Counted from the stretch's first letter, positions 3,581-58,737 are shown. The stretch is 64,000 bases of DNA from an uncultured Acidobacteriota bacterium (GCA_963776495.1 CAVZMW010000006.1:1045629-1109628); one strand, 5' to 3'. The notes: generated from the letters alone by a model not told the origin. Program-made: numbers and translations.

Positions 3581-3660
3581 GGCTGACGGCCGATGGCCGA
3601 AGGCTGATGGCCGTGCACGTCTGACACCGCCTTCAGCCGTCGGTCCTCAGCCTTCAGCCC
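3581..3660. repeat. Heptad repeat arrays forming an inverted pair
   Basis: Left arm ggctgac ggccgat ggccgaa ggctgat ggccgtg (3581-3615). Right arm gccttca gccgtcg gtcctca gccttca (3629-3656) is its imperfect reverse complement. Lies between the convergent 3' ends of the TRAP permease and the NmrA gene. Confidence 0.8.
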
Positions 3661-3665
3661 GTTCT

Positions 3666-3690
3666 GTAGGGCGCGGCCTTCAGGCCCGCC
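3666..3690 (+). repeat. REP-like GTAG-headed hairpin, copy b
   Basis: gtagggcgcggccttcaggcccgcc. Its right arm supplies the last codons (W R A stop) of the minus-strand NmrA gene. Confidence 0.6.
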
Positions 3691-4540
3691 ACTCCTGCAC
3701 GAGCTCGGCCGCGTAGGCCTCAAAGCCCCGGGGCGCGTGGCCGAGCAGGGCCTCCTGCGCGGCGAAGTCCCGGCCGCTCGCGTGCAGCCCGAACCGGATG
3801 AAGTAGTCGTACATGATCCGGAAGTCCTCGAGCATCCAGGCCGGGTAGACCGACGCCACCTGCCGCGCCCAGACGTCGAGATCGTCGCCGCCGTACCGGA
3901 TCGTGCGGCCGAGCGCCTCGCTGTAGACGCGCGCCGTGTCGTCGCCCGTGAGTCCGCGCGGTCCGTGGAGCGGGACGATCCCCGCGCCGCCGCCGCGCGA
4001 GAAGGCGTTCACGGCCGCTTCGGCGATGTCGCGCACGTCCACCCGATTGAGCCCGCGCGGACCGATCGGCTGCGGGTAGACGCCGAACTTCGTGATCGCC
4101 TCGCGCGACCAGGCGTCGTTCTGGAAGAAGTTGTTCGGCCGGAGGATGGTCCACGCCGCCCCCGAGGCCTGCACCGCCTGCTCGACCGGCACCTTCGAGG
4201 CGAAATGCGGGATCGCCTCGCAGCCGGGAGCCATGGCGACCGACATGTAGACCAGACGGCCGGTGCGGGCAGCCCTGGCCGCATCGACGGCGGCCAGCCC
4301 CTGGGCCGTTTCGTTCTGGACGACCGGGACGAGCAGGAACACCCCGTCCGCCCCGCGGAAGGCCGCGGGCAGCGTGGCGGGGTTCTCGAGATCGGCGACG
4401 ACGTGCGCGACGCCCGGCGGGAGCCGGCGGGCCTTGTCTGCCGAGCGCGTCATCACGCACGGCTCGTGTCCCCGCGCGAGGAGTTTCGCCACCACCGCCG
4501 AACCGACCGTTCCCGTTCCGCCGATCACCAGCACCTTCAT
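3680..4540 (-). CDS. NmrA-family NAD(P)-binding protein
   Basis: Rossmann N-terminus MKVLVIGGTGTVGSAVV starts at ATG 4540. The track ORF start at 4612 would translate the heptad array and is rejected. NmrA-like length and sequence. Confidence 0.8.
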   Translation of the reverse strand: MKVLVIGGTGTVGSAVVAKLLARGHEPCVMTRSADKARRLPPGVAHVVADLENPATLPAAFRGADGVFLLVPVVQNETAQGLAAVDAARAARTGRLVYMSVAMAPGCEAIPHFASKVPVEQAVQASGAAWTILRPNNFFQNDAWSREAITKFGVYPQPIGPRGLNRVDVRDIAEAAVNAFSRGGGAGIVPLHGPRGLTGDDTARVYSEALGRTIRYGGDDLDVWARQVASVYPAWMLEDFRIMYDYFIRFGLHASGRDFAAQEALLGHAPRGFEAYAAELVQEWRA

Positions 4541-4553
4541 GCCGACGCCTCCC

Positions 4554-4609
4554 TCGAGCCTGAGTCCTGAGCCTTGAGTCTTGAGTCCTGAGCCCCGACC
4601 CCCGAGCCT
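4554..4609. repeat. Heptad repeat array, 8 units
   Basis: tcgagcc tgagtcc tgagcct tgagtct tgagtcc tgagccc cgacccc cgagcct. Lies immediately 5' of the NmrA start codon, in the promoter/5' UTR region. Confidence 0.8.
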
Positions 4610-4703
4610 CATCGTGCCGCATTACGGCCGGGCACTGCAAGGCGCGGGGAGATGTTACAGTAAGGCGAGGTTGCACCCCGACGGTCTCTGAAAGGCGAGC
4701 ACG

Positions 4704-5024
4704 ATGCACATCGAACATCCCCACGCGCTGGGCCGACAGGAAGCCATGTCCCGGCTCGATCACCTGCTCGACGCCCTGGTCAAGGACCCGCCCGGCGGCG
4801 CGGAGATCGGGAACATCGTCACCGAGTGGGACGACAACCGGATGCGGTTCTCGTTCACGGCCTCGAAGGGGGGGTTTGGCACGACCATTCGCGGCACGCT
4901 CGAGGTGACCGACGACCGCGTCGTGGTGGACGCCGACCTGCCGGTGCTCGTCAAGGCCGCCCTTGGCGAGGCGCGCGTGCAGCAGGCCGTTTCGGGCGGC
5001 CTGAAGGACGTGCTGGGGCAGTAG
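4704..5024 (+). CDS. Small polyhydroxyalkanoic-acid-system-family-like protein
   Basis: 106 aa. Its size and pattern (IEHPHALGRQEA...RMRFSF...RGTLEVTDDRVVVDADLP) resemble the small putative PHA system protein family. From recollection only. Confidence 0.45.
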   Translation: MHIEHPHALGRQEAMSRLDHLLDALVKDPPGGAEIGNIVTEWDDNRMRFSFTASKGGFGTTIRGTLEVTDDRVVVDADLPVLVKAALGEARVQQAVSGGLKDVLGQ

Positions 5025-5043
5025 GGAAGGAGACGACCTGTCG

Positions 5044-7140
5044 ATGGCGATTTCCAACTGCCCGCCGAGCGCCTGGGCGATGGCCGAAGGGCTTCCGTCG
5101 CCGCTGGGCGCGTCGTGGAACGAGCGCGCCCGCGCGTGGAACTTCGCGCTCTATTCCAAGCACGCGACGTCGGTCACGCTGCTGCTCTACGCGCCCGGCC
5201 AGGTCGCCGAGCCGGTGCGCCGCGTCCGGTTCGATCCGATCGCCAACAAGTCGGGCCGCGTCTGGCACTGCTGGATCCCGGAGGCCGATCTCCAGGGCGC
5301 GGTCTACTACGCCTACTCGGTGGACGGCCCCCGCGAGCCGTGGGCCGGGCTCCGCTTCGATCCGGACAAGGTGCTGCTCGACCCTTACGCGCGAGCCGTC
5401 TTCTTCCCGCCGGACTTCGACCGCGAGGCCGCCCGGCGGCCGGGCAGCACCGCGGGGCGCGCGCCGCTCGGCGTGCTCGAGGCCAGCCGGCACTCCAACG
5501 GCTGGACGGAGGGCTGCCGTCCGCGCCACGCCTGGGACACGGTGATCTACGAGATGCACGTCCGCGGCTTCACGCGGCGGGCGAACTCGGGTGTGGCGCC
5601 CGAGCGCCGCGGGACGTTCGCCGGCGTCATCGACAAGATCCCCTACCTGCTGGACCTCGGCGTGACGGTCGTCGAGTTGCTGCCCGTCTTCCAGCGCGAT
5701 CCCCAGGAACGAAACTACTGGGGCTACATGCCCCTCAGCTTCTTCGTCCCGCACGCGCAGTACGCGGCCGCCGGCACGCCGGAAGCGGCAATCGACGAGA
5801 TGCGGGAGATGGTCGGCGCGTTGCACGAGGCCGGCATCGAAGTCGTCCTCGACGTCGTCTACAACCATACCGTGGAAGGAAACGAGCACGGGCCGACCTA
5901 CAGCTACCGCGGGATCGACAACCTCGCGTACTACCTGATGCAGGTCGATCGCAGCCAGTACCGCAACGACGCCGGGACCGGGAACGTGCTGCACACGGCG
6001 AACATGGCGGTCCGCAAGATGGTGGTCGACAGCATGCGGTTCTGGGCGCGCGAGATGCACGTCGACGGGTTCCGCTTCGACCTCGCGTCGATCTTCACCC
6101 GGCGGACCGACGGGTCGATCGACCTGCACGACCCGCCGATGATCTCCTCCATCAACGCCGATCCGGACTTCCGCGAACTGCGGCTGATCGCCGAGGCGTG
6201 GGACCTCGAGAGCTACCAGCTCGGGCGGCGCTTCCCCGGCGTCGGGTGGTACCAGTGGAACGACCGGTTCCGCGACGAGGTGCGGGCCTTCGTCCGCGGG
6301 GACCGCGGCACGGTCGGCAACCTCATGACACGGCTCTACGGCAGCGCCGACCAGTTCCCGGACGGGTTGCTCGACGCCTACCACGCCTACCAGAGCGTGA
6401 ACTTCGTCACGGCCCACGACGGGTTCTGCCTGTACGACCTCGTGTCGTACAACGAGAAGCACAACCTGGCCAACGGCGAGGAGAACGCCGACGGGGCGAA
6501 GAACAACCTGAGCTGGAACTGCGGTCACGAGGGCGACGAGGGAGCGCCCCCCGAGGTGCTGGCGCTGCGCCGGCAGCAGGTGAAGAACTTCTGCGCGCTG
6601 CTGTTCCTCTCGAACGGCACGCCGATGCTCCTCGCCGGCGACGAGTTCATGCAGACGCAGGGCGGCAACAACAACCCCTACAACCAGGACAACGAGACCA
6701 CCTGGCTCGACTGGTCCAGGCTCGAACGCCACGCGGACGTCTACCGCTTCTTCAAGATGATGATCGCGTTCCGCAAGGCGCACCCGTCGATCGGACGGAG
6801 CCGTTTCTGGCGCGACGACATCAGCTGGTACGGCGTCGGGCCCAAGGTGGACTGGAGCGACGAGTCGCGCCAGCTCGCCTGCTGCCTGCACGGGGCGTCG
6901 CAGGGGGACCGCGACCTCTACGTGATGTTCAACGCCGGCGCCGCGGACCTGAAGTTCCGGGTGCAGGAGGGAAGCGCGGCCGAGTGGGTGCGCGTCGTGG
7001 ACACCGCGCAGCCCTCGCCGCAGGACATCGTGCCCGAGGACCAGGCCGCCAGGATGAAGTCGATGACCTGCCCGGTCCGCGCGCGGTCCGTCGTCGCGCT
7101 CGTGCGCAACCGCGGCACGGCGCCTCAAACCGGCCGTTAG
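5044..7140 (+). CDS. glgX: Glycogen debranching enzyme (isoamylase-type GH13)
   Basis: 698 aa with GH13 signatures: VILDVVYNHT, GFRFDLASI, EAWD, FVTAHDGF. The N-terminal region is typical of GlgX. An alternative start at M13 (5080) is possible. Confidence 0.9.
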   Translation: MAISNCPPSAWAMAEGLPSPLGASWNERARAWNFALYSKHATSVTLLLYAPGQVAEPVRRVRFDPIANKSGRVWHCWIPEADLQGAVYYAYSVDGPREPWAGLRFDPDKVLLDPYARAVFFPPDFDREAARRPGSTAGRAPLGVLEASRHSNGWTEGCRPRHAWDTVIYEMHVRGFTRRANSGVAPERRGTFAGVIDKIPYLLDLGVTVVELLPVFQRDPQERNYWGYMPLSFFVPHAQYAAAGTPEAAIDEMREMVGALHEAGIEVVLDVVYNHTVEGNEHGPTYSYRGIDNLAYYLMQVDRSQYRNDAGTGNVLHTANMAVRKMVVDSMRFWAREMHVDGFRFDLASIFTRRTDGSIDLHDPPMISSINADPDFRELRLIAEAWDLESYQLGRRFPGVGWYQWNDRFRDEVRAFVRGDRGTVGNLMTRLYGSADQFPDGLLDAYHAYQSVNFVTAHDGFCLYDLVSYNEKHNLANGEENADGAKNNLSWNCGHEGDEGAPPEVLALRRQQVKNFCALLFLSNGTPMLLAGDEFMQTQGGNNNPYNQDNETTWLDWSRLERHADVYRFFKMMIAFRKAHPSIGRSRFWRDDISWYGVGPKVDWSDESRQLACCLHGASQGDRDLYVMFNAGAADLKFRVQEGSAAEWVRVVDTAQPSPQDIVPEDQAARMKSMTCPVRARSVVALVRNRGTAPQTGR

Positions 7141-7225
7141 CTGGCAACTGGCAGCGGAAGGGCAGCCAGCAGGTGATTCCCGCCGGCTGCCCCCGAAGGT
7201 GAAATCCGCTGTCAACCATCCCGGT

Positions 7226-7260
7226 CCCCGACTACGGACCGTGATCCGCTGACCGCTGAC
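7226..7260. repeat. Heptad repeat array, 5 units
   Basis: Read on the minus strand: gtcagcg gtcagcg gatcacg gtccgta gtcgggg. Lies at the 3' end of the BNR gene, between convergent genes. Confidence 0.55.
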
Positions 7261-10200
7261 TACTGTCCAAACTCATCCTCGAGCACCTCGACCTTCGTGG
7301 CGTAGGTCTTCCCGCCCACCGACAGCGTGGCGAGATAGGCCCCCGGCTCGACGACCTGCCCGCCGAACCCTCCGCGCCCGCCGCCGCCTCCGCGCCCCTG
7401 GCCGCCGGCGACCGGGGTGAGGCGGAAGTCCCACTGCACGCGGTTGAGGCCGGCGGTCTTCGGGGCCTCGAACGTCCTGATCACCTTGCCGGAGTAATCG
7501 CTGATGGTGAGCTTGACGTCGCCGGCCGCCGCGGCCTTCAGGTAGTAGCTGATGGCCACGCCCGGGGCCGGGTTCTCGCCGGCGAAATTCTTCGCGCCGC
7601 CGATCGACCGGCTCAGCGTGATGTCGGTCTTCCACTCGGTCCCCGGCCGCACGTCGAACAGGTGGGCGTCCTCCTTCATCACCTCGTCGCTGAGATCCTG
7701 GAGCGCCGTGATGTCGTCGAGGATGTAGATGCTCCGCCCGTGGGTCGCGACGATGAGGTCGTTGTCCCTCGGGTGCACCATGACGTCGTCGATGCGGACG
7801 GTGGGCATCCCGTTCATGAACCGCTTCCACTCGGCGCCGCCGTTCAGCGAGACGTAGAAGCCGTACTCGGTGCCCAGGTAGAGCAGGTTCTTGCTCTTCG
7901 GGTCTTCCTTGATGACGTTGACGTTGCCGACCGCCGGCAGGTTGCTCGCGAGCGCCTTCCACGTCTGCCCGTAGTCGCGCGTCACGAAGACGTAGGGCTT
8001 CATGTCGTCGGTCCGGTGGCCGTCGAAGGAGACGTAGCAGGTGGCGGCGTCGAAGTGCGAGGCCTCCACGCGCGAAACGTGGGTCTCCTTGGGCACGCCG
8101 GGCACGTTGTCGACCACGTTCTTCCACGTCTGGCCGCCGTCGCGCGACACCTGGACGTTGCCGTCGTTGGTGCCGACCCAGATCACGCCGGGCATGGCCG
8201 CCGACTCGCTGATCGTGACTATGCTGCTGAAGGCGCCGGCGCCGTCGTGCTTGGACGCCATCGGCGCGTCGCCGGGGACGCCCATGATCGGCCGCACGAA
8301 GCGGCTGATGTTCTTCGTCAGGTCGGGCGAGCCCAGGTAGGTGTCGCCCCGGTCGTACGACCGGAACAACTCGTTGGCGCCGATGTAGACCGTCCTGGGG
8401 TTGAACGGCGACAGGAGGATCGGCGTGTTCCAGAAGAACCGGTACTGCGTGCCTTCGGGCGGCGCGGGCAGGATGTTCCCGCGCTGCGCCATGGCGAACG
8501 CCGCCGTCGCCGGGCCGGCCGGTGCGACGGCCGGGGCCTGACCGGCTGTCGCGGCGCCTCCCGCCTGGCCGCGCTGGCCCTGCGGCGGCCGTGCTGCCGC
8601 GGCCGCGCGCGGCTTGATGCTGGTCGGCCGCCCGCCGCGCAGGTCGACGCGCTGCACGGCGCCGTCCTGCGACTCGACGTAGATCGTCGACCAGTCGGTC
8701 GGGTCCGCCTGCGTGTAGAATCCGTCGCCGCCGCCGACGCGGAACCACTCGGCGTTGGTGATCCCCTCGCTGCTTCGCGTGGCGCTCGGGCCGCCCCACG
8801 TGCCGTTGTCCTGCAGGCCGCCGTACACGTAGTACGGCTTCCGCATGTCGGCGCTGATGGCGTAGAACTGGCCGACCGGCACCGTGTTGACGAACTCCCA
8901 GGTGTCGGCCTGGTCGTAGCTGACGTCGAGGCCGCCGTCGTTGCCGATGATGATGTGCTTCGGGTTCTTCGGATCGATCCACAGGGCGTGGTGGTCGGTG
9001 TGTGCGATCCCCTGCACCACCTTGAACGTCTTGCCGCCGTCAACCGACTTGTGGAAGGGCGCGCCGCACGTGTAGACGATCTGGTCGTTGGTCGGGTCGA
9101 CCCGAATCTGGCTGTAATACATCGGCCGATCGTTGTTGTTGCTCATCAGCTTCCAGGTCTTGCCCCGATCGTCCGACCGCCACACGCCGCTCTTCTTGGG
9201 GTCGGGAGGCGGAGGCGGCTGGCCGGCTGCGGCGCCGCGCTGGCCGCCGCCCCCACCACCACCGCCGCCGCCGCGCGCGCCGGCCACCGCTTCCTTGCCG
9301 TCGGGCCCGACGTTCGCGCCGGTGCCGGGCGAGGCGCCGACCTCGATCTGCGCGTAGAGCACGCCGGCCTTCGAGCGGGCCGCCGAGAGGCCGATCCGCC
9401 CGAGCATCCCCTCGGGGAAGCCGTTGCCGGCGATCCGCGTCCAGGACTTGCCGGCGTCCGCGCTCTTCCACACGCCGCTGCCCGGGCCGCCGCCGTTGAA
9501 GCCCCACGGCACGCGGCGCCGCTGGTAGGACGCGGCGTACAGCGTCTTCGAGTCGAACGGGTCGATCACGATGTCGGTGAACCCCGTGTCGGCGTCGATC
9601 ACCTTGACCGCGGTCCACGTCTTGCCGCCGTCGACCGTCTTGTAGACGCCCCGCTCGGGGTTCGGCCCGAACAGGTGGCCGAGGACCGCGACGTAGACGA
9701 TGTTCGAGTCCTTCGGGTCGATGACGATGCGGGCGATCGACTGCGAGTCCTCGAGGCCCATGTGGGCGAACGTCTTGCCGCCGTCGACCGACTTGTAGAT
9801 GCCGTCGCCGAACGACGAGCTCTGGCGGTTGTTCGCCTCACCGGTGCCGACCCACAGGATGTCCGGGTTGCGCTGATCGACGGCGAGCGCGCCGATCGAG
9901 CAGACCGGGTAGGTGTCGAAGATCGGCGTCCACGTGGTGCCGTTGTTGGTGGTCTTCCAGACGCCGCCGGTGGCGAAGCCGATGTAGATGGTCGAGGGGT
10001 CCGACTCGACCACCGCGAAGTCGTCGATGCGCCCGCCCATGCTGGCGGGGCCGATCGAACGGAACCTGAACGCCTTGAGCAGCGGGTCGTCCGACTGGTT
10101 GATCACCGGGCGGGCGGCGGGCGCGGCCTGTGCGGGCGCCGCGGCCTGTGCGGTCGGCGGCGCCTGTGTCGGACGCTGCGGGGCCTGCGCCGCGGTCCCC

Positions 10201-10265
10201 ACCCAGAACAGGGCGAGGCACGAGGCGGTGGCCACGAGCAAGCGGATACGCAATCGTGGAGTCAT
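7260..10265 (-). CDS. Secreted BNR/Asp-box repeat, sortilin (VPS10)-like glycosyl-hydrolase-like protein
   Basis: About 1000 aa with signal peptide (LLVATASCLALFWVGTAAQA). Multiple Asp-box motifs (S.DGG.TW / S.D.G.TW) and a Gly/Pro low-complexity linker. ATG at 10265 is preferred over the TTG at 10292. Confidence 0.8.
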   Translation of the reverse strand: MTPRLRIRLLVATASCLALFWVGTAAQAPQRPTQAPPTAQAAAPAQAAPAARPVINQSDDPLLKAFRFRSIGPASMGGRIDDFAVVESDPSTIYIGFATGGVWKTTNNGTTWTPIFDTYPVCSIGALAVDQRNPDILWVGTGEANNRQSSSFGDGIYKSVDGGKTFAHMGLEDSQSIARIVIDPKDSNIVYVAVLGHLFGPNPERGVYKTVDGGKTWTAVKVIDADTGFTDIVIDPFDSKTLYAASYQRRRVPWGFNGGGPGSGVWKSADAGKSWTRIAGNGFPEGMLGRIGLSAARSKAGVLYAQIEVGASPGTGANVGPDGKEAVAGARGGGGGGGGGGQRGAAAGQPPPPPDPKKSGVWRSDDRGKTWKLMSNNNDRPMYYSQIRVDPTNDQIVYTCGAPFHKSVDGGKTFKVVQGIAHTDHHALWIDPKNPKHIIIGNDGGLDVSYDQADTWEFVNTVPVGQFYAISADMRKPYYVYGGLQDNGTWGGPSATRSSEGITNAEWFRVGGGDGFYTQADPTDWSTIYVESQDGAVQRVDLRGGRPTSIKPRAAAAARPPQGQRGQAGGAATAGQAPAVAPAGPATAAFAMAQRGNILPAPPEGTQYRFFWNTPILLSPFNPRTVYIGANELFRSYDRGDTYLGSPDLTKNISRFVRPIMGVPGDAPMASKHDGAGAFSSIVTISESAAMPGVIWVGTNDGNVQVSRDGGQTWKNVVDNVPGVPKETHVSRVEASHFDAATCYVSFDGHRTDDMKPYVFVTRDYGQTWKALASNLPAVGNVNVIKEDPKSKNLLYLGTEYGFYVSLNGGAEWKRFMNGMPTVRIDDVMVHPRDNDLIVATHGRSIYILDDITALQDLSDEVMKEDAHLFDVRPGTEWKTDITLSRSIGGAKNFAGENPAPGVAISYYLKAAAAGDVKLTISDYSGKVIRTFEAPKTAGLNRVQWDFRLTPVAGGQGRGGGGGRGGFGGQVVEPGAYLATLSVGGKTYATKVEVLEDEFGQ

Positions 10266-10507
10266 CGATTGGCCCTTTCGGTAGAGAGACAACGCTCGGT
10301 TGGCAACTGATATTAGGCGGCATCATACCGCAAGGCCTGGCGACGCGCGCTCCCAGTTCCTCGAGCGCGCACCGGCGGTTGATGGCGCCGTCCACCGCCG
10401 GAAATCCGGCAGCGATCGTGCGCCGCGGGCCGGTCCAGCCAGCCCGGCCGGCGGCGATCCGCTGAATTGGGCTGGATTATCCACGGATTCTCGCGCGGGC
10501 CGGTCGC

Positions 10508-10523
10508 TGGCAACGTGATTGCT
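10508..10523 (+). promoter_or_regulatory. Candidate sigma-54 (-24/-12) promoter
   Basis: TGGCAA-cgtga-TTGCT matches TGGCAC-N5-TTGCW with exact spacing. Lies 109 nt upstream of the cytochrome c start. Confidence 0.45.
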
Positions 10524-10631
10524 TGCAAGTGCTGTCGGACTTCATTACATTCTCGGCATCCAGCTGGACCAGCCGTCCCGTGACCATCCGGACGCCCGGT
10601 CGTCTTCCGGGCGTCGGTGGAGGAATTCTCG

Positions 10632-11093
10632 ATGAGCGGTGCGCTCAAGAACAAGGGGCACCTCGCCCGCATGGCGGGGCTGTTCGTCGTCGGCATCGTG
10701 GCGTTCCTGGTCCTCAGGTGGTGGATGGTGCCGGCCAGTTTCGGCACCTACGGCCATTACCGGGCCGCGGCGCTCGACGACATCCGCGCGCGGCCGATGC
10801 ACTACGCCGGGCGCGCCGCCTGCGAGGACTGCCACGCCGACATCGTCGCCCAGCGCAAGGGAAGCCGGCACGAGCGGATCGGCTGCGAGGCCTGCCACGG
10901 GCCGCTGCTGGCGCACGTGGAGGCCGGCGGCGAGAAGAAGCCGGCGCTGCCCGATACCCGCGTGCTGTGTCCGCGGTGCCATGCCGCCAGCCCGTGGAAG
11001 CCGAAGGGGTTCCCGCAGGTCGTGGTGGCCGAGCACAGCCCCGAGGGACCCTGCACCGCGTGCCACAAGGCGCACGCGCCGAAGATCTCCTGA
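10632..11093 (+). CDS. Membrane-anchored tetraheme cytochrome c
   Basis: Four CxxCH motifs (CEDCH, CEACH, CPRCH, CTACH) and an N-terminal TM helix (LFVVGIVAFLVLRWWMV). ATG 10632 is preceded by ggtggagga. Confidence 0.85.
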   Translation: MSGALKNKGHLARMAGLFVVGIVAFLVLRWWMVPASFGTYGHYRAAALDDIRARPMHYAGRAACEDCHADIVAQRKGSRHERIGCEACHGPLLAHVEAGGEKKPALPDTRVLCPRCHAASPWKPKGFPQVVVAEHSPEGPCTACHKAHAPKIS

Positions 11094-11106
11094 GCCCGGA
11101 GCAGCC

Positions 11107-11877
11107 ATGAATCCCGACCGACGGAAGTTCCTGTTCGACACCGGCAAGCTCCTCGTCCTCACGGCCTCGGCGTCGGTGGCGTGGGAGGCCATCCTCGCCG
11201 GCACGCCCGAGACGGCGCCCAACTACACGATGACCGACCACTGGTGGGGCATGGTCGTCGACATCGAGCAGTGCATCGGCTGCGGCAACTGCGTGCGCGC
11301 GTGCAAGGCCGAGAACGGCGTGCCCCTCGACCCCCGGTTCTTCCGGACGTGGGTGGAGCGGTACCGCGTGGTGCCGGAGGATCTCGAGCACCCGACCGTG
11401 GATTCGCCGAACGGCGGCTACGACGGGTTCCCCGACAAGGGGGGCGCCGACGCCGATCCGACCGCGAAGCACTTCTTCGTGCCCAAGCTGTGCAACCACT
11501 GCGCGGAGTCGCCGTGCACGCAGGTCTGCCCGGTCGGCGCCACCTTCATGAGCCCCGACGGCGTCGTGCTGATCGACCGGGAATACTGCCTGGGCTGCCG
11601 CTACTGCGTGCAGGCGTGCCCGTACGGCTGCCGGTTCATCGACCCGAGGACCGAGACGGCCGACAAGTGCACGCTGTGCTACCAGCGCATCACCAGGGGA
11701 CTGACGACCGCGTGCTGCGAGACCTGCCCGACCGGCGCGCGTCAGCTCGGCGACCTGAAGAATCCGAAGGACCCGATCCACAGGTTCCTGCGCGAGCACC
11801 ACGTGCTCGTGCTGAAGCCGCAGATGGCGACGGGCGCCAAGATCTACTACAACGGCCTCGACGGCTCGGTGAGGTAG
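11107..11877 (+). CDS. Tat-exported 4Fe-4S ferredoxin-type subunit (NrfC/PsrB/DsrO-like)
   Basis: Twin-arginine signal MNPDRRKFLF. Several Cys clusters (CIGCGNCVRAC, CNHCAESPC, CLGCRYCVQACP, CTLC). ATG at 11107 lies inside the longer track ORF 10639..11877. Confidence 0.85.
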   Translation: MNPDRRKFLFDTGKLLVLTASASVAWEAILAGTPETAPNYTMTDHWWGMVVDIEQCIGCGNCVRACKAENGVPLDPRFFRTWVERYRVVPEDLEHPTVDSPNGGYDGFPDKGGADADPTAKHFFVPKLCNHCAESPCTQVCPVGATFMSPDGVVLIDREYCLGCRYCVQACPYGCRFIDPRTETADKCTLCYQRITRGLTTACCETCPTGARQLGDLKNPKDPIHRFLREHHVLVLKPQMATGAKIYYNGLDGSVR

Positions 11878-11893
11878 GAGGCGGAGGACACCG

Positions 11894-13081
11894 ATGGGAA
11901 GCGTGTTGCCGGCGGTCCAGGGGTTCATGTACCCCAACGAGGTGGAGCTCCAGTGGAGCGTCCTCATCGTGCTCTACCCGTACATCACGGGCCTCGTCGC
12001 GGGCGCGTTCATCCTGGCGTCGCTCGAGCGCGTCTTCAACGTCGAGGCGGTCAAGCCGACCTACCGCCTGGCGCTGCTGACCGCCCTGGCGTTCCTCCTG
12101 GTGGCGCCGCTGCCGCTGCAGCTGCACCTCGGCCACCCGGAGCGGTCGCTCGAGATGTACCTGACGCCGCACACCACGTCGGCGATGGCGATGTTCGGCT
12201 TCGTGTACCTCTGGTACCTGATGGTCGTGCTCGTCCTCGAGATCTGGCTCGACTACCGGAAGGAGATCGTGCTGACCTGGCGCGAGTCGCGCGGCGCGAA
12301 GCGCGCGCTCTACGGGGCGATGGCCCTCTGGTACGACAACATCAGCCCCGAGGCGCTCGCGATCGACGACCGGGTGGGCAAGGCGATCACCGTCATCGGG
12401 ATCCCGTCGGCGTTCATGCTGCACGGCTACGTCGGGTTCATCTTCGGGTCGATCAAGGCGAACCCGTGGTGGTCCACGCCGCTGATGCCGATCGTCTTCC
12501 TGTTCTCGGCCATCGTGTCGGGCATCGCGGCCGTCATGCTCGTCTACATGGTGACGGCCTGGTGGCGCGAGCGCCGGTTCGACATGGCGTGCCTCGACAC
12601 GATCGGGCGGTACCTGTTCTACGCGTTCGTCATCGACTTCTCGCTCGAGATGCTCGACCTCATCCACCGCATCTACGAGGCCGACGAGTCGTTCCGCGCG
12701 CTCGACTTCATGGTGCACACCCAGCTGTGGGTGTCGCAGGTGATCGTGCAGATCCTGGTGGGCACGCTCGTGCCGATCTTCATGCTCGGCGCGGTGCAGC
12801 TGCTCCGGATGAGCGAGACGGTCAGGCGGCGGATCTACGCCGTGGCCGGCACGCTGACGCTCATCGGCATCTTCGCGATGCGCTGGAACGTCGTCATCGG
12901 CGGGCAGCTGTTCTCGAAGAGCTTCCTCGGCTACACGGCGTACAAGATGACGTGGGCGACGCGCGAGGGGCTGCTGCCGGCCATCTTCCTGATGATCCTG
13001 CCGCTCGGGATCCTCTACGTGCTCGTGAAGCTGCTGCCGCCGTGGCGGTCGGGGCGACGCGGCGACGTTTCGGTCATGTAG
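11894..13081 (+). CDS. NrfD/PsrC-family integral membrane quinone-interacting subunit
   Basis: 395 aa polytopic membrane protein. It follows the FeS subunit, matching the classic three-gene cytochrome/FeS/NrfD architecture. Confidence 0.8.
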   Translation: MGSVLPAVQGFMYPNEVELQWSVLIVLYPYITGLVAGAFILASLERVFNVEAVKPTYRLALLTALAFLLVAPLPLQLHLGHPERSLEMYLTPHTTSAMAMFGFVYLWYLMVVLVLEIWLDYRKEIVLTWRESRGAKRALYGAMALWYDNISPEALAIDDRVGKAITVIGIPSAFMLHGYVGFIFGSIKANPWWSTPLMPIVFLFSAIVSGIAAVMLVYMVTAWWRERRFDMACLDTIGRYLFYAFVIDFSLEMLDLIHRIYEADESFRALDFMVHTQLWVSQVIVQILVGTLVPIFMLGAVQLLRMSETVRRRIYAVAGTLTLIGIFAMRWNVVIGGQLFSKSFLGYTAYKMTWATREGLLPAIFLMILPLGILYVLVKLLPPWRSGRRGDVSVM

Positions 13082-13089
13082 TCGCCGCG

Positions 13090-13138
13090 GCGATCGGCCT
13101 TCGGCTATCGACCTTCGGCGATCGGCTCTCGACTTTCG
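13090..13138. repeat. Heptad repeat array, 7 units
   Basis: gcgatcg gccttcg gctatcg accttcg gcgatcg gctctcg actttcg, starting 9 nt after the NrfD stop. Confidence 0.8.
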
Positions 13139-13505
13139 GTCGTGCCACGTGTCCACCGGTGGGGCACGGCTTCACCCCTCGACGACGGTCGCGGTGCCCT
13201 GAGCATGTCGAAGGGCGCCGGCCGGGAAGAACGGCCTGCCCGGTCGGCGTGCCGACGCGAACCATCCGTCCCGACCAGCTCGTCAGTTGGGCGGGCGGCC
13301 AGGGGGCGATTTCTGGGCCGAACGGCCCTCGTATCCCTTTACAATCGAAAGTACCTCAAGAGTGCGAGCCCCCACTCGTGGCCAGAGCGTTGGCTCGGGC
13401 ACGAGCGGGTCGTTTGAGCGCGTCCCGTGTCGGTCAGGGGCGTGCTCCGATCGACCGCGCTGCGGGCTCGTATTCCGCTGGCTTCGCGCCGACAGGCTGA
13501 GCCAT

Positions 13506-16500: not shown

Positions 16501-17913
16501 TACCACCTCAACCTGCTGCAGAACCTGGCGGCCTACACGAGCATCGCGCTCGACAACGCCGGCGCCTACCGGCAGCTGAACGAGCAGGCGCGCGAGATCC
16601 GGCAGCGGGCGGCCGAGCTGGCCACGATCGACAACATCAGCCGCGCCCTCGCCTCCGAGCTGGAGGTCGGCGCGCTGATTCCGCTCGTCGGCGACCAGGT
16701 CCGGCGGGTGTTCGACGCGCAAATCGCCTACGTGGCGATCTACGACAAGGCGACGAGCACGATCTGCTTCCCATACGGGTACGGGGACGAGTTCCCCTCC
16801 CTGCCGCTCGGCGTCGGCATGACGTCGCGGATCATCCAGACGGGCGAGCCGCTGCTCATCAACGAGGACCTCGGCGCGCGCGCCGCGCAGCTGAACATCC
16901 AGCGCACGGGGGCCGCGGCCAAGTCGTACCTCGGGGTGCCCATCCCGGTCGGCACCGAGGTCATCGGCGTGCTCAGCGTCCAGAGCACCGAGGCCGAGGG
17001 GCGGTTCACCGAGGCCGATCTCCGGCTCCTCACGACGATCGCCGCCAACGTCGGCGTGGCGATTCACAACGCGCGGTTGTTCGAGGAGACTCGGACGGCC
17101 AGGGCCGCGGCCGAGGAAGCCGACGCCGCCAAGAGCGCCTTCCTCTCGACCGTCAGCCACGAGCTGCGCACGCCGCTCACCTCGGTCCTCGGCTTTGCGA
17201 AGGTCATCAGGAAGCGGCTCGACGACCGCGTCTTCAAGGCCGTGGCCACCGACGACGCGAGGCTGCGGCAGACGATCCGGCAGATCGGCGAGAACCTGGA
17301 CGTCGTCGTCAGCGAGGGGGAGCGGCTCACCCATCTCATCGACGACGTCCTCGACCTCGCGAAGATCGACGCGGGGAAACTCGAGTGGCACATGGAGAAC
17401 GTCGCGATCGCGGACATCATCGACCGCGCCGCCGCGGTCACCTCGTCGCTGTTCGAGCAGAAGGCGTTCGCGCTCGTCAAGGACGTCGCCCCGGGCCTGC
17501 CCGCCGTCGTCGGCGACGCCGACCGGCTGCTGCAGGTGGTCATCAACCTGATCTCGAACTCGGTGAAGTTCACCGACGCCGGGTCGGTGACCTGCCGCGC
17601 CAGGCTGCGGGAAGACGGAATCGTCGTCAGCGTGATCGACACCGGGTCTGGCATCGCGGCGGCCGATCAGCCGAAGGTGTTCGAGAAGTTCAAGCAGGTG
17701 GGCGACACGCTCACCGACAAGCCGAAGGGCACGGGGCTCGGCCTGCCCATCTGCAAGGAGATCGTCGAGCACCACGGCGGGTGCCTCTGGGTGGAGAGCG
17801 AGCTGGGCAGAGGCAGCACGTTCTCGTTCCTGCTGCCGGCGCAGGCGCAGCCGGCCGCCGGGAAGGGGCCGCCGGCGATCGACCTCGTCGTCCGCCAGCT
17901 CCGCGACCCATAG
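13506..17913 (+). pseudogene. Hybrid-architecture sensor histidine kinase (beta-propeller repeats, Y_Y_Y, TM, GAF, HisKA, HATPase) with three apparent frameshifts
   Basis: GTG 13506 begins the signal peptide VKTRVPALLVALLTVAVVAAQP. The propeller region is in frame 0. The Y_Y_Y segment (YYLEGLETGWSAWG...YRFRVRARN) is in frame 1 between ~15701 and the C5 run at 15864-15868. TM and GAF return to frame 0. From ~16340 the GAF/HisKA (VSHELRTPL)/HATPase part is in frame 1 (track ORF 16396..17913). May be intact if these are sequencing errors. Confidence 0.75.
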
Positions 17914-17953
17914 CCGCGTCGCCGATCGCGCGCGTTTCCCGAGGGAGGGTCGG

Positions 17954-18331: not shown

Positions 18332-18338
18332 GGCCGGC

Positions 18339-45262: not shown

Positions 45263-45327
45263 GGCCGCCGGTAGCAACCCGCCGGCGGCCGTTTTCACAT
45301 CACCCGTTCTTCCGCTCCGGCGCCGCC

Positions 45328-53541: not shown

Positions 53542-55530
53542 TCACTTCACCAGGGGCAACTCCACGAAGCTCGCCTCGCCAGGCGCGTGGTAGATGCGCT
53601 GGACCGCCTTCTTGTAGTCCCCCGGCTTCGCCCAGAAGATGTTCGGGACGAACGTCTGCGGATTCCTGTCGTAGAGCGGGAACCAGCTCGACTGCACCTG
53701 CACCATGATGCGATGGCCGGGCAGGAAGACGTGGTTGACGTTCGGGAGGGCGAACGTGTAGTTCAGCGGCACGTCGGGCGTGATCGCCTTCGGCGTCTCG
53801 AAACTCTCGCGGTACCGGCCGCGGAAGATGTCCATCGCGACGGCCAGCTGATACCCGCCCATCGCCGGCTGCATCGGCACCTCGTCCGGGTACACGTCGA
53901 TGAGCTTCACCACCCAGTCCGAGTCGGTGCCGGTCGTCGAGGCGACCAGGTTGACGACCGGCTCGCCGCTCAGCTTCACCGGCGCCGTCAGCGTGTCCGA
54001 GACGAACGTCAGCACGTCGGTGCGGCCCGACGCCTCGCGCTGGTCCGTCGTGAGCCATTCCGACCACCGCGGGCCGCTCGACGGCCGGTTGGGCCGCGGC
54101 GTGTAGGGCACCGGCTTCGACGGGTCGGAGACGTACTCGTCGAACGGGGAGTCGCCCGCCTTCGGCGCGGTGAAGCCGGCCGTCAGGCCGGCGCCCAGAT
54201 AGAGCGGCGTCGGCACGATGGAGCACCCGGCGGCGCACCCCGCCGGCCACGCGGTGAGCCTGCGCCAGGTATTGGTGCCCGTCTCGAACGCCGTCACCGG
54301 CGCGACGTCGGCCTTCGGCGCGCCGTCCTTCAGGTACTGCGCCAGGAACGGCGCCAGGATGTCGCGCCGGAACTGCAGCGCCGTGTCCGCGTCGAACTTG
54401 ACCGGGCCGAGCGCGCTGCCGTCGTGGATCTCCTGCCCGTGATACCAGGGACCGAGCACGAGGAACACCTTGTCGTTCGCCGTGTCCTTCGGCTCGATCG
54501 CCTTGTAGACGGCGGGCGCGCCGTACATGTCCTCCTGGTCCCAGAGCCCGGCGACCAGCATCACCGGTACGCTCAGCGGCTGCGCGGCCAGCACCTTGTC
54601 CATCGCCTGCTGCTGCCAGAAGGCGTCGTAGGCGGGGTGCTCCGTCAGCTTGCGCCAGAAGCCAAGCTGCTCCATCCCGTGCTGGCGCCCGAGTTCGCCG
54701 GCCGAGCCGGCCTTCAGGTACTCGTCGTAGTCGTCGTAACAGGACGACCACCACTGCGCCGACGAATCCCGTGTCGCTTCCTGACCGTAGATGTAGGGGA
54801 GATTCTGCTGCCGGAATGCGCCGTTGTGGAACCAGTCGTCGCCGCGCCAGCCGTCCACCATCGGGTTCATCGGGACCGACACCTTGAGCGCCGGGTGCGG
54901 GTTGACGAGCGCCATCAGCGGCAGGAACCCGTCGTACGAGATGCCGAGAATCCCGACCTTGCCGTTGGTCTCCGGGACGTTCTTCACCAGCCAGTCGATG
55001 GTGTCGTAGGTGTCGGTGGCGTGATCGACGGCGGTCGGGTTGAGCGGGCCACGCAGGGGGCGGTTCATCACGTAGTCGCCCTCGGAGCCGTACTTGCCGC
55101 GCACGTCCTGCACGACGCGGATGTAGCCGCCGTCCACGATGACGTCCACGGCGTTGTCGTAGCCGTCGAGCACCGGGCCGAGGTGCGAGCTATTGGCGTG
55201 GCTCGTCAGGGCGGTCGCGTTGTATGGCGTGCGGGTGAGCAGGATGGGCGCATGCGCCGCGCCCCGGGGCACGAGGATCACGGTGTGCAGCCGCACGCCG
55301 TCGCGCATCGGGACCATGACCTCGCGACGGACGTAGTCGAACGAGGTCGTGACCGGGGCGAACTTCGCCGGCGTCTCGCTCCCGAGCGCGGCCGGCGAGG
55401 CGGGGCGCTGCGGTTGAGCCTGCGCCCGCAGGTCGGGCGCGGCGGTCGCCAGGAGCACGGTTGTCGCTCCGGCAAGAACGACGCCCCCAAGCCGCCAGAA
55501 TCCCTGCCCCCGCCGTTCCTGCGTCGTCAT
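53542..55530 (-). CDS. CocE/NonD-family hydrolase (X-Pro dipeptidyl-peptidase S15-like)
   Basis: 662 aa with signal peptide, GISYDG nucleophile motif and the C-terminal beta-sandwich domain pattern. Confidence 0.85.
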   Translation of the reverse strand: MTTQERRGQGFWRLGGVVLAGATTVLLATAAPDLRAQAQPQRPASPAALGSETPAKFAPVTTSFDYVRREVMVPMRDGVRLHTVILVPRGAAHAPILLTRTPYNATALTSHANSSHLGPVLDGYDNAVDVIVDGGYIRVVQDVRGKYGSEGDYVMNRPLRGPLNPTAVDHATDTYDTIDWLVKNVPETNGKVGILGISYDGFLPLMALVNPHPALKVSVPMNPMVDGWRGDDWFHNGAFRQQNLPYIYGQEATRDSSAQWWSSCYDDYDEYLKAGSAGELGRQHGMEQLGFWRKLTEHPAYDAFWQQQAMDKVLAAQPLSVPVMLVAGLWDQEDMYGAPAVYKAIEPKDTANDKVFLVLGPWYHGQEIHDGSALGPVKFDADTALQFRRDILAPFLAQYLKDGAPKADVAPVTAFETGTNTWRRLTAWPAGCAAGCSIVPTPLYLGAGLTAGFTAPKAGDSPFDEYVSDPSKPVPYTPRPNRPSSGPRWSEWLTTDQREASGRTDVLTFVSDTLTAPVKLSGEPVVNLVASTTGTDSDWVVKLIDVYPDEVPMQPAMGGYQLAVAMDIFRGRYRESFETPKAITPDVPLNYTFALPNVNHVFLPGHRIMVQVQSSWFPLYDRNPQTFVPNIFWAKPGDYKKAVQRIYHAPGEASFVELPLVK

Positions 55531-55604: not shown

Positions 55605-55628
55605 GCCGGGGCTGAAGCCCCGGCCTAC
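55605..55628 (-). repeat. REP-like GTAG-headed hairpin, copy e (inverted)
   Basis: The reverse complement reads gtaggccggggcttcagccccggc. Confidence 0.55.
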
Positions 55629-55659
55629 GTACGAGGTGCAGCGTGACATGCGTGACACC

Positions 55660-55701
55660 GCCTGAAGCCTGAAGTCCGGAGCCTGGAGCCTGGAGCCGAG
55701 C
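55660..55701. repeat. Heptad repeat array, 6 units
   Basis: gcctgaa gcctgaa gtccgga gcctgga gcctgga gccgagc, ending 5 nt before the ahcY stop. Confidence 0.8.
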
Positions 55702-55706
55702 AATCG

Positions 55707-57118
<1,412 letters not shown>

Positions 57119-57122: not shown

Positions 57123-57856
57123 TCTGGTCTCCTTGGCTCGTAGATCGTCAATGCGTCACTCATGCCGGCCACCATTACCCGTCCGCACTCGGCGCCCGCG
57201 GCGCCTTCCGACAGCTCTTCGACCACGGGCCCCGTGATGCCGATCCCGCCACGACAGTGAGCCGCCACGAACGGCATCGTGAGGAACGCCGTGTTCACCG
57301 TCTGCCCGATGATGTCGGTGCGCGCGTACTCGGGATGGCCGGCGGATCCGAGGAAGATCTCGCCGCCGTGCAGCACGACAACCAGTTCGGGCACCTCGAA
57401 GAGCTGCTTGGCCTGCCGGGCCGCGTTCAGCGCGCGGTCGGCCTTCCCGGGCCCGGCGAAGAAGCCGAGAAAGCCGTCGCCCACGCACTTCACCGGCACC
57501 CCGTCGAACCGCAGCACCGCCTCGGTCACCGCGTAATGGATCGTATTCGACCAGGCCGCGAGGTCGGCAGGCGCCATCCGCGCCGCCCGCTCGGCGAACC
57601 CGTTCAGGCTGGTGCAGAGCACGACCGCGGGAAACGTCCCGGGCGCCTCCTGCCGTCCCGTGAGGATCCACTCCACGCTGACGCCCAGCAGGCGCGCCAG
57701 GTCCAGCAGCACCGCGATGTCGGGCGCGTTCTCGCCCCGTTCCCACTTCGACACGGCCTGAGACGTCAGGCGCAGCGCGCTCGCAATATCCGACTGGCGC
57801 AGCTGCCTGCGCTCGCGCTGCTGCTTGATCCGCTGGCCGAGCTTGCCGAGGTCCAT
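57119..57856 (-). CDS. XRE-family HTH regulator fused to a class III nucleotidyl-cyclase-like domain
   Basis: N-terminal HTH ([27 protein letters not shown]). C-terminal CHD-like motifs ([21 protein letters not shown]). The first metal-binding Asp position reads LCTSLNGF, so the Asp is absent. The stop overlaps the ahcY start by 4 nt. Confidence 0.6.
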
Positions 57857-58072
57857 GGAACGTCAAAGCGTACCGTGTTCGGAAGGGCAGCACAATGGCG
57901 CAGTGGTTGCGGCGGGTGACGAAGTGGTTGGCTGAAGTTGCCGCACCGCCCGGCGCCGACCCTGGCAACCAGTGCACGCCAGGCGAGTGATGGCGCGCCA
58001 TGCGAAGGCTCAGGGCGCCAGAAGCCATTGAAAACGAACCGGTTATCTTTGCGATAACTCCCCGTGTTCCGG

Positions 58073-58088
58073 TGGCAGCACGATTGCA
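58073..58088 (+). promoter_or_regulatory. Candidate sigma-54 (-24/-12) promoter of the pilin gene
   Basis: TGGCAG-cacga-TTGCA with consensus spacing, 36 nt upstream of ATG 58124. Confidence 0.55.
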
Positions 58089-58123
58089 AACCACCCCTCC
58101 CGTGAGGTCGGGGGGAGGCGACA

Positions 58124-58660
58124 ATGCATGGACGGGCGCCAGGCGGCTTCACGCTCATCGAGCTGCTCATCGTCGTCGCGATCATCGGCATCATCGCCGC
58201 GATCGCCGTGCCGGGCCTGATGCGGGCCCGGATGGCCGGAAACGAGGCGTCGGCCATCGGATCGCTGCGCGCCATCAACGCCGCCGAGGCGAGCTACGCC
58301 TCGAGCTGCGGCCAGGGAGCCTACGCGGGCACGCTGGCGGACCTGGGCAAGCCGCCGCAGGCCGGGTCGGAGGGGTTCATCGGGCCCGACCTGACGAACG
58401 ACCCGGCCACCAAGAGCGGCTACACGCTGACGATGTCGGCCGGGGATGCGGCTGCCGGTGGGGTGACGGGGTGCAACAGCCCTTCGTCGCTCGCGCAGGC
58501 CTACTTCGTGGCCGCGGACCCGCTCGTCGCCAACTCGACCGGGACGCGGCGCTTCGGCACCAACCAGGGTGGCACGATCTACCAGTCCACGGCCGACCCG
58601 CCGGCCACGCTGGCGGTCACGCTGGTGGGCGCGCCGGCCGCGGCGGCGCCGATACAGTGA
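58124..58660 (+). CDS. Type IV pilin / T2SS pseudopilin-like protein
   Basis: Prepilin leader and cleavage/methylation motif MHGRAPGG|FTLIELLIVVAIIGIIAAIAVP. 178 aa. Confidence 0.85.
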   Translation: MHGRAPGGFTLIELLIVVAIIGIIAAIAVPGLMRARMAGNEASAIGSLRAINAAEASYASSCGQGAYAGTLADLGKPPQAGSEGFIGPDLTNDPATKSGYTLTMSAGDAAAGGVTGCNSPSSLAQAYFVAADPLVANSTGTRRFGTNQGGTIYQSTADPPATLAVTLVGAPAAAAPIQ

Positions 58661-58667
58661 TCACGGG

Positions 58668-58737
58668 GGCCGACGGCTGACGGCCGACGGCTGAGGGTTG
58701 AAGGCTCGCGGTTGGCGGCTCGCGACTGGAGGCCGCG
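58668..58737. repeat. Heptad repeat array, 10 units
   Basis: ggccgac ggctgac ggccgac ggctgag ggttgaa ggctcgc ggttggc ggctcgc gactgga ggccgcg. Lies between convergent pilin and grpE. Confidence 0.8.

Follow-up and report, generated by a model that had tools for sequence, protein, structure and literature searches.

Tandem heptanucleotide arrays and heptad hairpins beside stop codons in an uncultured Acidobacteriota bacterium

A stretch of 64,000 nucleotides from an uncultured soil Acidobacteriota bacterium (GCA_963776495.1, CAVZMW010000006.1:1045629-1109628), hereafter the window, numbered from its first letter, carries a large set of short tandem arrays whose unit is seven nucleotides long (heptads) and which mostly lie next to stop codons. 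The gene map, based on codon-position composition and Pfam hits, assigns 82% of the window to coding sequence, and the G+C content is 68–70%. The flanking genes encode, among others, a DctM-type transporter, an SSF transporter, a rubrerythrin, the ferredoxin and alpha subunits of a 2-oxoacid:ferredoxin oxidoreductase, an S-adenosylhomocysteine hydrolase and GrpE (Table 1). The nearest named homologues of the S15-family peptidase encoded close to the hydrolase gene come from Vicinamibacterales and other Acidobacteriota (~80% identity), and the host, as judged from sequence, is probably a member of the order Vicinamibacterales of the Acidobacteriota.

Period-7 arrays at gene 3' ends

Tandem repeats were called with Tandem Repeats Finder (TRF), and an independent test scored self-matches of the window at a lag of p nucleotides (28-nt window, 75% identity; looser variant, 21 nt and 70%). 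At lag 7, the stricter test finds 14 arrays totalling 649 nt, versus 0–1 array for each other period from 3 to 13 and for period 15; period 14, which is twice seven, gives 7 arrays. About zero period-7 arrays were obtained in 20 dinucleotide-preserving shuffles of the window. The looser variant yields 16 arrays for period 7, none for periods 5 and 10, two for period 8 and three for period 11, while periods 6 and 9 give 11–12 each, unmapped runs that are attributed to codon periodicity as both periods are multiples of three. Period 7 is thus enriched over its neighbours as well as over shuffled sequence. According to TRF and lag 7, the window contains 14–16 arrays of 4–12 units, i.e. at or above the three to four copies from which tandem repeats are counted as long simple sequence repeats (SSRs).

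The original prediction had listed at least 16 such loci. TRF places period-7 arrays at or beside 14 of its 16 start positions and these 14 are robust; the other two are marginal, one (7226–7260) because of indels and a TRF score of 32, the other (39266–39298) because it consists of ~4 loose units, is assigned period 10 by TRF and does not clearly exceed chance. Super-periods of 14 and 21 nt occur within arrays with up to 100% identity (an exact 21-nt super-period with a 100% match at 21137–21186), which points to recent duplication of blocks of several units.

Almost all of this repetition is located outside genes: 16 of the 17 period-7 runs are non-coding on the gene map, the sole borderline run inside a coding sequence being 12278–12306. 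The arrays are therefore not equally frequent in coding DNA, and the view that they at most clip the terminus of a gene agrees with the map; the array at 30105–30159, which clips 40 nt, provides the stop codon of the SSF transporter gene. A stop codon lies within 10 nt of an arm at 11 of the 14 loci and only four arms touch a start codon. Among the 27 gene 3' ends followed by a spacer of at least 40 nt, a strong period-7 signal is found within 130 nt in 12, or in 15 at a slightly lower cut; none of the 27 has a comparable signal at periods 5, 6, 8, 9 or 10.

Most loci fit the unit G-[GA]-C-[TC]-N-N-N (G-R-C-Y-N-N-N). The looser template first proposed holds in this form except at 31642–32720, where an AT-richer unit (ACGAAGT/ACTTCGT) is used instead. 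Within arrays, G1 and C3 are near-invariant, changes at positions 2 and 4 are transitions, and variability peaks at position 7. As the phase of the units was chosen on the G-R-C-Y core, positions 1–4 are biased to look conserved; the contrast between positions 5–6 and position 7 is unaffected. The three units of the short tandemly repeated repetitive (STRR) elements of cyanobacteria are CCCCAGT, TTGGTCA and CAACAGT (STRR1–3). None of them occurs even twice in tandem in the window, nor is there any tandem occurrence of GGGAATC, TAACTGA, GGGGATT or GGGACCG. The units carry GG at most, and ACGAAGT carries no such run, as compared with the run of at least three G per unit from which G-quadruplexes are formed.

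Each locus was folded as RNA on the relevant strand and its stability expressed as a z-score against shuffles (Table 1). Two architectures can be distinguished: an array followed by an inverted array, which folds into a hairpin, or a single array, which folds no better than shuffled sequence; two loci are intermediate. The five inverted-arm loci initially recognised fold with z-scores of −2.4 to −6.0, and a sixth, at 58661–58800, is added here. The predicted stems are 20–45 bp long and periodically mismatched: six paired bases alternate with one unpaired base, which is the variable position 7 of the unit. No U-tract follows them, so that only the stem of an intrinsic terminator (GC-rich stem plus U-tract) is present. 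The hairpins have no common loop or terminal motif and, as the units differ by locus, they do not share a consensus of the kind that defines repetitive extragenic palindromes (REPs) and bacterial interspersed mosaic elements (BIMEs). A shared loop motif was considered and rejected: GTCACGC recurs at the junction of the hydrolase and peptidase genes but is absent among 24 unrelated hairpins. Between the ferredoxin and alpha-subunit genes, the predicted fold pairs CUUCA with UGGAG, and this structure may juxtapose the stop region upstream and the ribosome-binding site downstream.

Table 1. Heptad arrays and neighbouring features of the window (slash between positions, two segments; z, folding score against shuffles)
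Feature	Position	Strand	Context	Folded interval, z
Heptad arm GGCYGAN x5, 5' arm of hairpin between convergent genes	3575–3615	+	9 nt past DctM-type transporter stop (3565)	3566–3679, −3.4
Inverted arm, GGCTGAN on − strand	3629–3660	−	19 nt from NmrA-like gene stop (3680)	
Single array GRCTCAR x7	4556–4611	−	Divergent spacer; 15 nt upstream of NmrA-like start, just upstream of its GGGAGG ribosome-binding site; unstructured	4541–4620, +0.84
Weak run GACYNNN x ~5	7226–7260		Abuts BNR-protein stop; separate non-heptad hairpin (z −3.8) in same spacer	
Single array GRCYNTC, 14/21-nt super-period	13088–13139	+	6 nt past NrfD stop	13082–13150, −1.9 (intermediate)
Single array GGCTTCG/GGCTCCC	21137–21186	+	2 nt from MacB-type permease stop; antisense to both flanking genes	21094–21188, −1.6 (intermediate)
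Single array GGCTYNN	27761–27804	−	Overlaps BlaR1-like gene stop	27750–27810, −0.4
Single array GGCTGAN x7	30105–30159	−	Overlaps last 40 nt of SSF transporter gene	30090–30165, −0.7
Long hairpin, (ACGAAGT)n and (ACTTCKT)n arms	31642–31701/31716–31772	−	Fills 176-nt spacer between gene X and SSF gene	31640–31780, −5.5
Single array ACTTCGN	32681–32720	+	Divergent spacer between gene X and Ldh_2 gene	32656–32730, +1.2
Compact hairpin, (GGCCGAC)x4 then directly (GTCAGCC)x3	38659–38720		Fills whole 61-nt spacer after rubrerythrin stop	38655–38725, −6.0
Marginal heptad-like run	39266–39298		Upstream of rubrerythrin gene	
Loose inverted pair, GGCTGAA-type then GCNAGYC x4	40520–40645 (robust array 40597–40634)		Outer 12-bp stem clear, heptad register irregular	40520–40645, −2.4
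Intercistronic hairpin, GGCTCAG/GGCTGAA arm then YTGAGCC/CTGGGCC arm	42633–42667/42688–42727	+	Between ferredoxin subunit stop and ribosome-binding site and start of oxidoreductase alpha subunit	42625–42730, −5.7
Longest single array, GRCTCAN x ~12	45178–45265	+	Between stops of a backbone gene (45091) and the integrase gene (45328)	45170–45270, −0.1
Single array GRCTYCN x5	55659–55703	−	3 nt past S-adenosylhomocysteine hydrolase stop	55655–55710, +2.2
GGCYGAN array then GRCTSGC hairpin pair	58662–58724/58760–58804		Spacer of convergent pilin-like and GrpE genes, all heptads	58661–58800, −2.05
GTAGG hairpin	590–613	+		
GTAGG hairpin, divergent copy found by eye	3664–3692	+		
GTAGG hairpin pair	39350–39373 and 39396–39419	+	Within 46-bp tandem duplication, 39340–39427	
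GTAGG hairpin	55605–55628	−		
GTGTCACGC-like motif	55630–55655	−	Just downstream of first heptad arm at hydrolase/peptidase junction	
Extra gene block relative to L208	13287–19946		Sensor kinase and SpoIIE-type phosphatase	
Reg_prop-GAF-histidine kinase gene	13287–17913		Reading-frame change at ~16400	
Extra gene block relative to L208	21189–30011		MacB-type permease, IS66, BlaR1/BlaI-like pair	
IS66 element	24.3–27.6 kb		Without arrays	
Gene X	31814–32656	−	280-aa secreted protein, no Pfam match	
Oxidoreductase alpha-subunit gene	42721–43784		Reading-frame change at ~43240	
Tyrosine integrase gene (Phage_integrase, SAM_4)	45328–46650	−		
Block adjoining integrase gene	46.6–53.5 kb		Lower G+C (62–65%)	
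S15-family peptidase gene	53542–55530			

No array was found in the IS66 element or in the integrase-adjacent block at 46.3–53.5 kb; as the density of the backbone predicts about three for these regions, their absence is weak evidence. The idea that the arrays belong to the host backbone rather than to one mobile sequence is supported by units that differ from locus to locus and by contigs which, with one heptad family, also carry others. In two stretches, 1–20,000 and 27,000–46,000, canonical hairpin-plus-U terminators turn out no more frequent than chance predicts (6 found versus 6.3 and 6.5 expected), and the terminator-like sites found there all lie inside genes on the gene map, none at an array. 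Sigma-70 promoters were likewise at chance level in a scan, and Rfam and tRNA scans of the whole window gave no match.

Turnover in relatives and occurrence in other phyla

The window was compared with syntenic contigs of related species (L081, L082–L085, L086 and L208), with which it shares 86–91% protein identity. Period 7 is again over-represented in these contigs, and arrays occupy the same gene junctions but differ in unit and copy number. Past the S-adenosylhomocysteine hydrolase gene, the unit is GGCTCCA/GACTTCA in the window, GGCTGAG/GGCCGAC in L081, GGCTGAG/GACTGAC in L082 and GACTGGC/GGCTGGC in L086. At this junction, which separates the hydrolase and peptidase genes, the window has a single array and each of these relatives two; the second arm is complementary to the first in L082 (z −6.1) and L086 (z −4.9), and not, as read by eye, in L081. 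Between the ferredoxin and alpha-subunit genes, the window and L082 carry heptad hairpins, where L081 has instead one, and L086 three, hairpins of a REP-like type that starts with GTAGG, while the flanking coding end and the ribosome-binding site are conserved in the four species.

At other junctions, a relative has next to nothing. L208 has overlapping genes or spacers of 15–26 nt where the window has heptad hairpins of 61–176 nt: gene X and the SSF gene overlap in L208 and are separated by the 176-nt heptad-hairpin spacer in the window, and the spacer between the rubrerythrin gene and a gene encoding 62 amino acids is 26 nt long instead of 61 nt. Similarly, the GrpE and pilin-like genes overlap in L086 and are separated by 140 nt of heptads in the window. 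On this comparison, it is the arrays that create the spacers at these junctions. In contrast with this turnover between species, the four contigs L082–L085, which come from different samples and are 99.95–99.97% identical, show neither indels nor single-nucleotide polymorphisms in their arrays. Since identical arrays recur in four independent metagenome assemblies of this related strain, they are neither assembly artefacts nor hypermutable on that timescale, and no unit-number polymorphism was seen among them.

The GTAGG hairpins form a second repeat family of the window, made up of GTAGG and, after it, a GC-rich hairpin whose loop is CTTCAG (e.g. GTAGGGCGGGCCTTCAGGCCCGCC). A pattern search found four copies versus none in shuffles, and further copies are present in spacers of L081, L082 and L086, those of the relatives occupying junctions that hold heptad hairpins in the window. 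From its sequence, the family looks like a REP element with a GTAG-type head and fits the REP/BIME consensus. Another type of hairpin was observed in L208, where a 78-nt spacer between convergent genes (9414–9491) surrounds a near-perfect non-heptad palindrome (GGATCGGGACGAATTTCAG...CTGAAATTCGTCCCGATC) at a place where the window has extra genes. Plain long hairpins, as far as this example goes, also serve as convergent-gene spacers in the lineage.

Outside the lineage, 80 loci (1.4 Mb) from other phyla were obtained with the S-adenosylhomocysteine hydrolase protein as query (at most 76% identity). They hold 16 period-7 arrays versus 0–2 for each of periods 4, 5, 8, 10 and 11; most belong to Verrucomicrobiota, others to Planctomycetota, Acidobacteriota and Bacteroidales, and some form inverted pairs (z −4.3 and −7.3). 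Altogether, hairpins of the relatives and of the Verrucomicrobiota loci have z-scores of −4.1 to −7.3. A scan of metagenomes for five tandem copies of GGCT(N3) matched at least 120 contigs with G+C contents of 36–75%, whose genes were called by a crude composition-based caller. All the counts given for this set refer to the matches listed.

In these metagenome contigs, 12 arrays lie in convergent spacers versus one in a divergent spacer (p = 0.003), and 32 of 81 stop-facing sides are within 10 nt of the stop versus 7 of 47 start-facing sides; overlap with an open reading frame, as predicted by the crude caller, concerns 20 of 124 arrays. An inverted partner is present within 150 nt of 23 of 94 arrays (24%), versus 2–4 with reversed or complemented control probes. 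Once the selected arrays are masked, the contigs still contain 43 period-7 arrays with unrelated units (other periods: one for 5, 17 for 8, six for 10 and 10 for 11), which argues for a genome-level propensity and not for one spreading sequence.

Two candidate general rules were rejected on the same matches. Eight of the nine single arrays of the window read G-R-C-Y on the sense strand, and the metagenome arrays do so in 11 cases versus 14 antisense; the idea that arrays provide stop codons in three frames fails because sense stop triplets occur in 22 of 38 stop-abutting arrays and in 25 of 43 distant ones. Nested hairpins, with outer arms made of one unit and inner arrays of another, were seen at four metagenome loci (L095, L135, L148 and L195; for example GGTGGAC within GGCTATC arms). 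Many of the at least 120 matches are located at contig ends, which suggests that heptad arrays also break assemblies.

Several features of the window touch the arrays without being part of them. The integrase-adjacent block is absent from L081, L082 and L086, each of which has other genes between the peptidase gene and the oxidoreductase operon; this junction is, on the comparison made, a hotspot where gene content varies. Two gene blocks of the window have no counterpart in the syntenic L208, and heptad arrays are found at three of their four edges (13088, 21137 and 30105), which may be a coincidence since about half of the 3' spacers carry arrays. Gene X, AT-richer than its neighbours by eye and flanked on both sides by the AT-richer ACTTCGT-type heptads, is only 48% identical to its L208 counterpart, as compared with 86% for the peptidase in L086, which belongs to the genome of the same relative; recombination may have replaced this allele along with the flanking DNA. 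At the hydrolase/peptidase junction, the GTGTCACGC-like motif, sometimes duplicated, is conserved in the window, L081, L082 and L086 while the surrounding arrays change, and may serve the peptidase gene as a promoter or regulatory element. The two frame-changed genes, a large histidine kinase gene and that of the oxidoreductase alpha subunit (intact with 348 aa in relatives), are either pseudogenes or affected by indel errors of a long-read assembly.

Origin and possible role of the arrays

Taken as a whole, the arrays are probably best viewed, with moderate confidence, as STRR-like heptanucleotide SSRs that grew by slippage and are tolerated only downstream of genes, their hairpin forms acting in the manner of REPs or terminators. 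The corresponding scheme would be as follows. A locus-specific 7-nt unit, here mostly G-R-C-Y-N-N-N, would be amplified in tandem by replication slippage, blocks of two to three units being duplicated as well, and the array would then decay through point mutation. Arrays would persist only where DNA is least constrained, immediately past stop codons, where they would lengthen or create the spacer, and they would be gained, resized and lost between related species. About a third consist of an array and its inverted copy, which as RNA or single-stranded DNA would fold into long hairpins made of 6-bp helices with a mismatch at position 7. Such hairpins would stop or pause transcription at gene ends, like REPs and intercistronic stem-loops, protect the upstream mRNA from 3' exonucleases and, within operons, couple neighbouring cistrons or set their ratio. 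Single arrays would probably be non-functional or half-decayed partners.

Growth by in-register slippage is inferred from the exact 14- and 21-nt super-periods and from the unit-number differences between species. By analogy, the role of the hairpins as terminators or stabilisers is proposed from the REP elements and stem-loops that occupy the same junctions in relatives and from a segment devoid of recognisable terminators; bidirectional termination, as first suggested, is plausible.

Several observations weigh against this interpretation. A relative lacks a spacer at several of the junctions, so that the elements are dispensable there, and, with unit number constant among L082–L085, slippage in progress is not seen directly. 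Nor does slippage by itself explain an enrichment restricted to period 7. Roughly one array in two is unpaired and gains no stability over shuffled sequence (z −0.7 to +2.2), and a hairpin function cannot account for these arrays. In the lineage, the sense strand folds better at five of seven hairpins in tandem spacers, but among the metagenome matches listed the transcribed strand is the more stable in four cases versus six, and arrays in same-direction spacers (11 sense, 14 antisense) have no orientation bias; this set thus bears no general signature of selection at the RNA level. Moreover, REP-like elements are themselves mobile, so that the sharing of sites may only mark permissive DNA.

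Many of these points would be expected if the arrays were a neutral or selfish by-product, a bias of replication or repair favouring both 7-nt slippage and inverted duplication by template switching, with no function and with survival only in the least constrained DNA past stop codons. This explanation is a serious possibility, although less probable than a functional role for the hairpins. It accommodates junctions where relatives lack the arrays or have other elements in their place and where genes even overlap, as well as the absence of orientation bias and of a sense-strand folding advantage among the metagenome matches listed, the half of the arrays that are unstructured, and the many unrelated units per heptad contig, which point to a genome-level mutational propensity. 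The depletion from divergent spacers can be accounted for by promoter constraint alone. A neutral by-product fits less well with the uneven variability of the unit, whose position 7, mismatched in stems, varies most while G1 and C3 are fixed, and with arms that differ between species yet are complementary within each. Inverted partners in 24% of the metagenome arrays listed would require selection or a dedicated mechanism, hairpins of some kind lie at the same junction in four species, and arrays are very dense: they follow about half of those gene 3' ends whose downstream spacer measures 40 nt or more.

Unit variability, arm complementarity within species and the excess of inverted partners point to selection or to a dedicated mechanism. 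A stronger proposal is that the arrays form a distinct class of 3'-end elements, interchangeable with REPs and made de novo in many phyla by a dedicated process advancing in 7-nt steps, which would insert arrays even between overlapping genes and produce matched inverted arms with a deliberately unpaired seventh base. Such a process might be synthesis that is hairpin-templated or relies on template switching, or the action of a 7-nt-staggered recombinase or transposase whose duplications would seed slippage. This proposal is rather unlikely.

Still less probable is a docking platform for a protein binding one heptad per subunit, either a cold-shock-domain or other single-strand binder or a DNA-binding regulator. 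Single arrays are unusually unstructured (z up to +2.2), the combination of a conserved core with variable positions resembles the spaced-triplet sites of RNA-binding proteins, and heptamer repeats can be bound by cold-shock proteins at one per unit, a point discussed for TAACTGA repeats (PMC4679880). However, units differ widely between loci and species (e.g. ACGAAGT and GGCTGAC), the listed metagenome arrays are not oriented relative to transcription, no candidate protein was identified and the arrays are dispensable in relatives.

Traces of mobile elements, i.e. palindromes resembling miniature inverted-repeat transposable elements or 7-bp target-site duplications that seeded later slippage, are very improbable. 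The hairpin loci do resemble palindromes inserted in otherwise minimal spacers, units differ by locus as target duplications would, and arrays are present at three of the four edges of the blocks that L208 lacks. The hairpins nevertheless have no common loop or terminal sequence, their units are not copies of one another and, with arrays in about half of the 3' spacers, some should fall at block edges by chance. The arrays have no linked candidate transposase, and IS66, which itself lacks arrays, makes target duplications of 8 bp, not 7.

Finally, that the arrays act as contingency loci, unit-number changes near promoters or in 5' untranslated regions switching or tuning the downstream gene, as had been suggested for the three arrays in 5' regions (4556, which ends 15 nt from a start codon, 32681 and 39266) and as heptamer repeats tune promoters elsewhere (e.g. 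the TTTTGAT repeats of ctxAB), is hardly credible, since arrays gather at stops and not at starts, only one divergent versus 12 convergent spacers carry them among the metagenome matches listed, the repeats are imperfect, unlike phase-variable SSRs, and indels are nil among the four near-identical contigs (strains of a relative, not the window strain).

Slippage-grown arrays with REP- or terminator-like hairpins thus remain the favoured view, and the lineage offers a very dense natural sample in which to study them, about every second gene end with a spacer carrying an array. Since a given junction may hold another array, a REP-like hairpin or nothing at all in relatives, gain, loss and co-evolution of arms can be traced. 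Testable regularities are the abutment of stop codons, the bias towards convergent over divergent spacers, the quarter of arrays in inverted pairs and the stems with six paired bases and one unpaired. In practice the benefit is modest: in genomes that yield no hits with standard terminator predictors, the arrays may serve as markers of transcript ends.

Comparison with known heptanucleotide repeats and gene-end elements

Heptanucleotide repeats have been noted in bacteria since 1990. A 2007 survey is cited as reporting that they are the most abundant long-SSR class in most prokaryotic genomes, and polymerase slippage is proposed as their cause (PMC4679880, PMC4692102). The arrays described here share with that class, as cited there, the over-representation of period 7, the location outside coding sequence, the phylogenetic scatter and the proposed slippage origin, to which the present data add the closeness to stop codons, the preference for convergent over divergent spacers, the 24% of inverted pairs and the 6+1 pattern of the stems.

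STRRs, already named in the original prediction as the closest analogue, consist of 7-bp repeats whose hairpins lie between genes, for example between hupS and hupL, and a role in transcript stability or translational coupling has been proposed for them (PMC2670836). The predicted folds of the window are likewise those of 7-bp repeats forming hairpins in intergenic or intercistronic DNA, and tandem 7-nt units with several families per genome are common to both (PMC2670836, PMC4692102). In contrast, the host is an Acidobacteriota and not a heterocyst-forming cyanobacterium, the STRR units are not found in tandem, the arrays are short (4–12 units) and degenerate with one hypervariable position, and their local density, at about half of gene 3' ends, is much higher.

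The GGGAATC repeats of Xanthomonas lie between genes, in some cases in inverted form, and their length at a given junction varies from one related species to another (PMC4692102). Together with the GGGGA(T/C)T repeats of Nostoc, they resemble the present arrays in being intergenic, in part inverted, and variable in length and sequence at the same junctions (PMC4692102), but their units contain runs of three to four G and were studied as G-quadruplex formers, whereas the units here have GG or no such run. Further heptamer families are the TAACTGA repeats of Beggiatoaceae (PMC4679880) and the GGGACCG/MTYCTGA sets of Geobacter (PMC2700814), which also consist of short tandem heptamers at many intergenic sites, some paired or inverted, with a suspected regulatory role. 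Each of these families has one dominant unit, unlike the locus-specific units found here, and TAACTGA repeats mostly lie directly upstream of start codons whereas the present arrays lie at stop codons. The literature search found no description of heptads in Acidobacteria or Vicinamibacteria. The novelty initially claimed is nevertheless overstated, the heptad class being already known from Xanthomonas, Nostoc, Beggiatoaceae and Geobacter.

Like REPs and BIMEs, the heptad hairpins are GC-rich imperfect palindromes located just past stop codons and between cistrons; at some junctions they occupy the site where relatives carry GTAGG-type REP-like hairpins, and they would work alike. REPs protect mRNA 3' ends and act in attenuation; each is a copy of one consensus whose 5' tetranucleotide, of GTAG type, is conserved, and REP-associated tyrosine transposases mobilise them. 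Heptad arrays, on the contrary, have no fixed sequence and no GTAG-type motif, and appear to grow in place. With intrinsic terminators, they share a stable GC-rich stem-loop right past the stop, also between convergent genes, but the heptad stems lack a U-tract, are far longer (20–45 bp) and are periodically mismatched. In the light of these comparisons, the arrays of the window are a dense further example of the known heptanucleotide class and not a separate kind of element.

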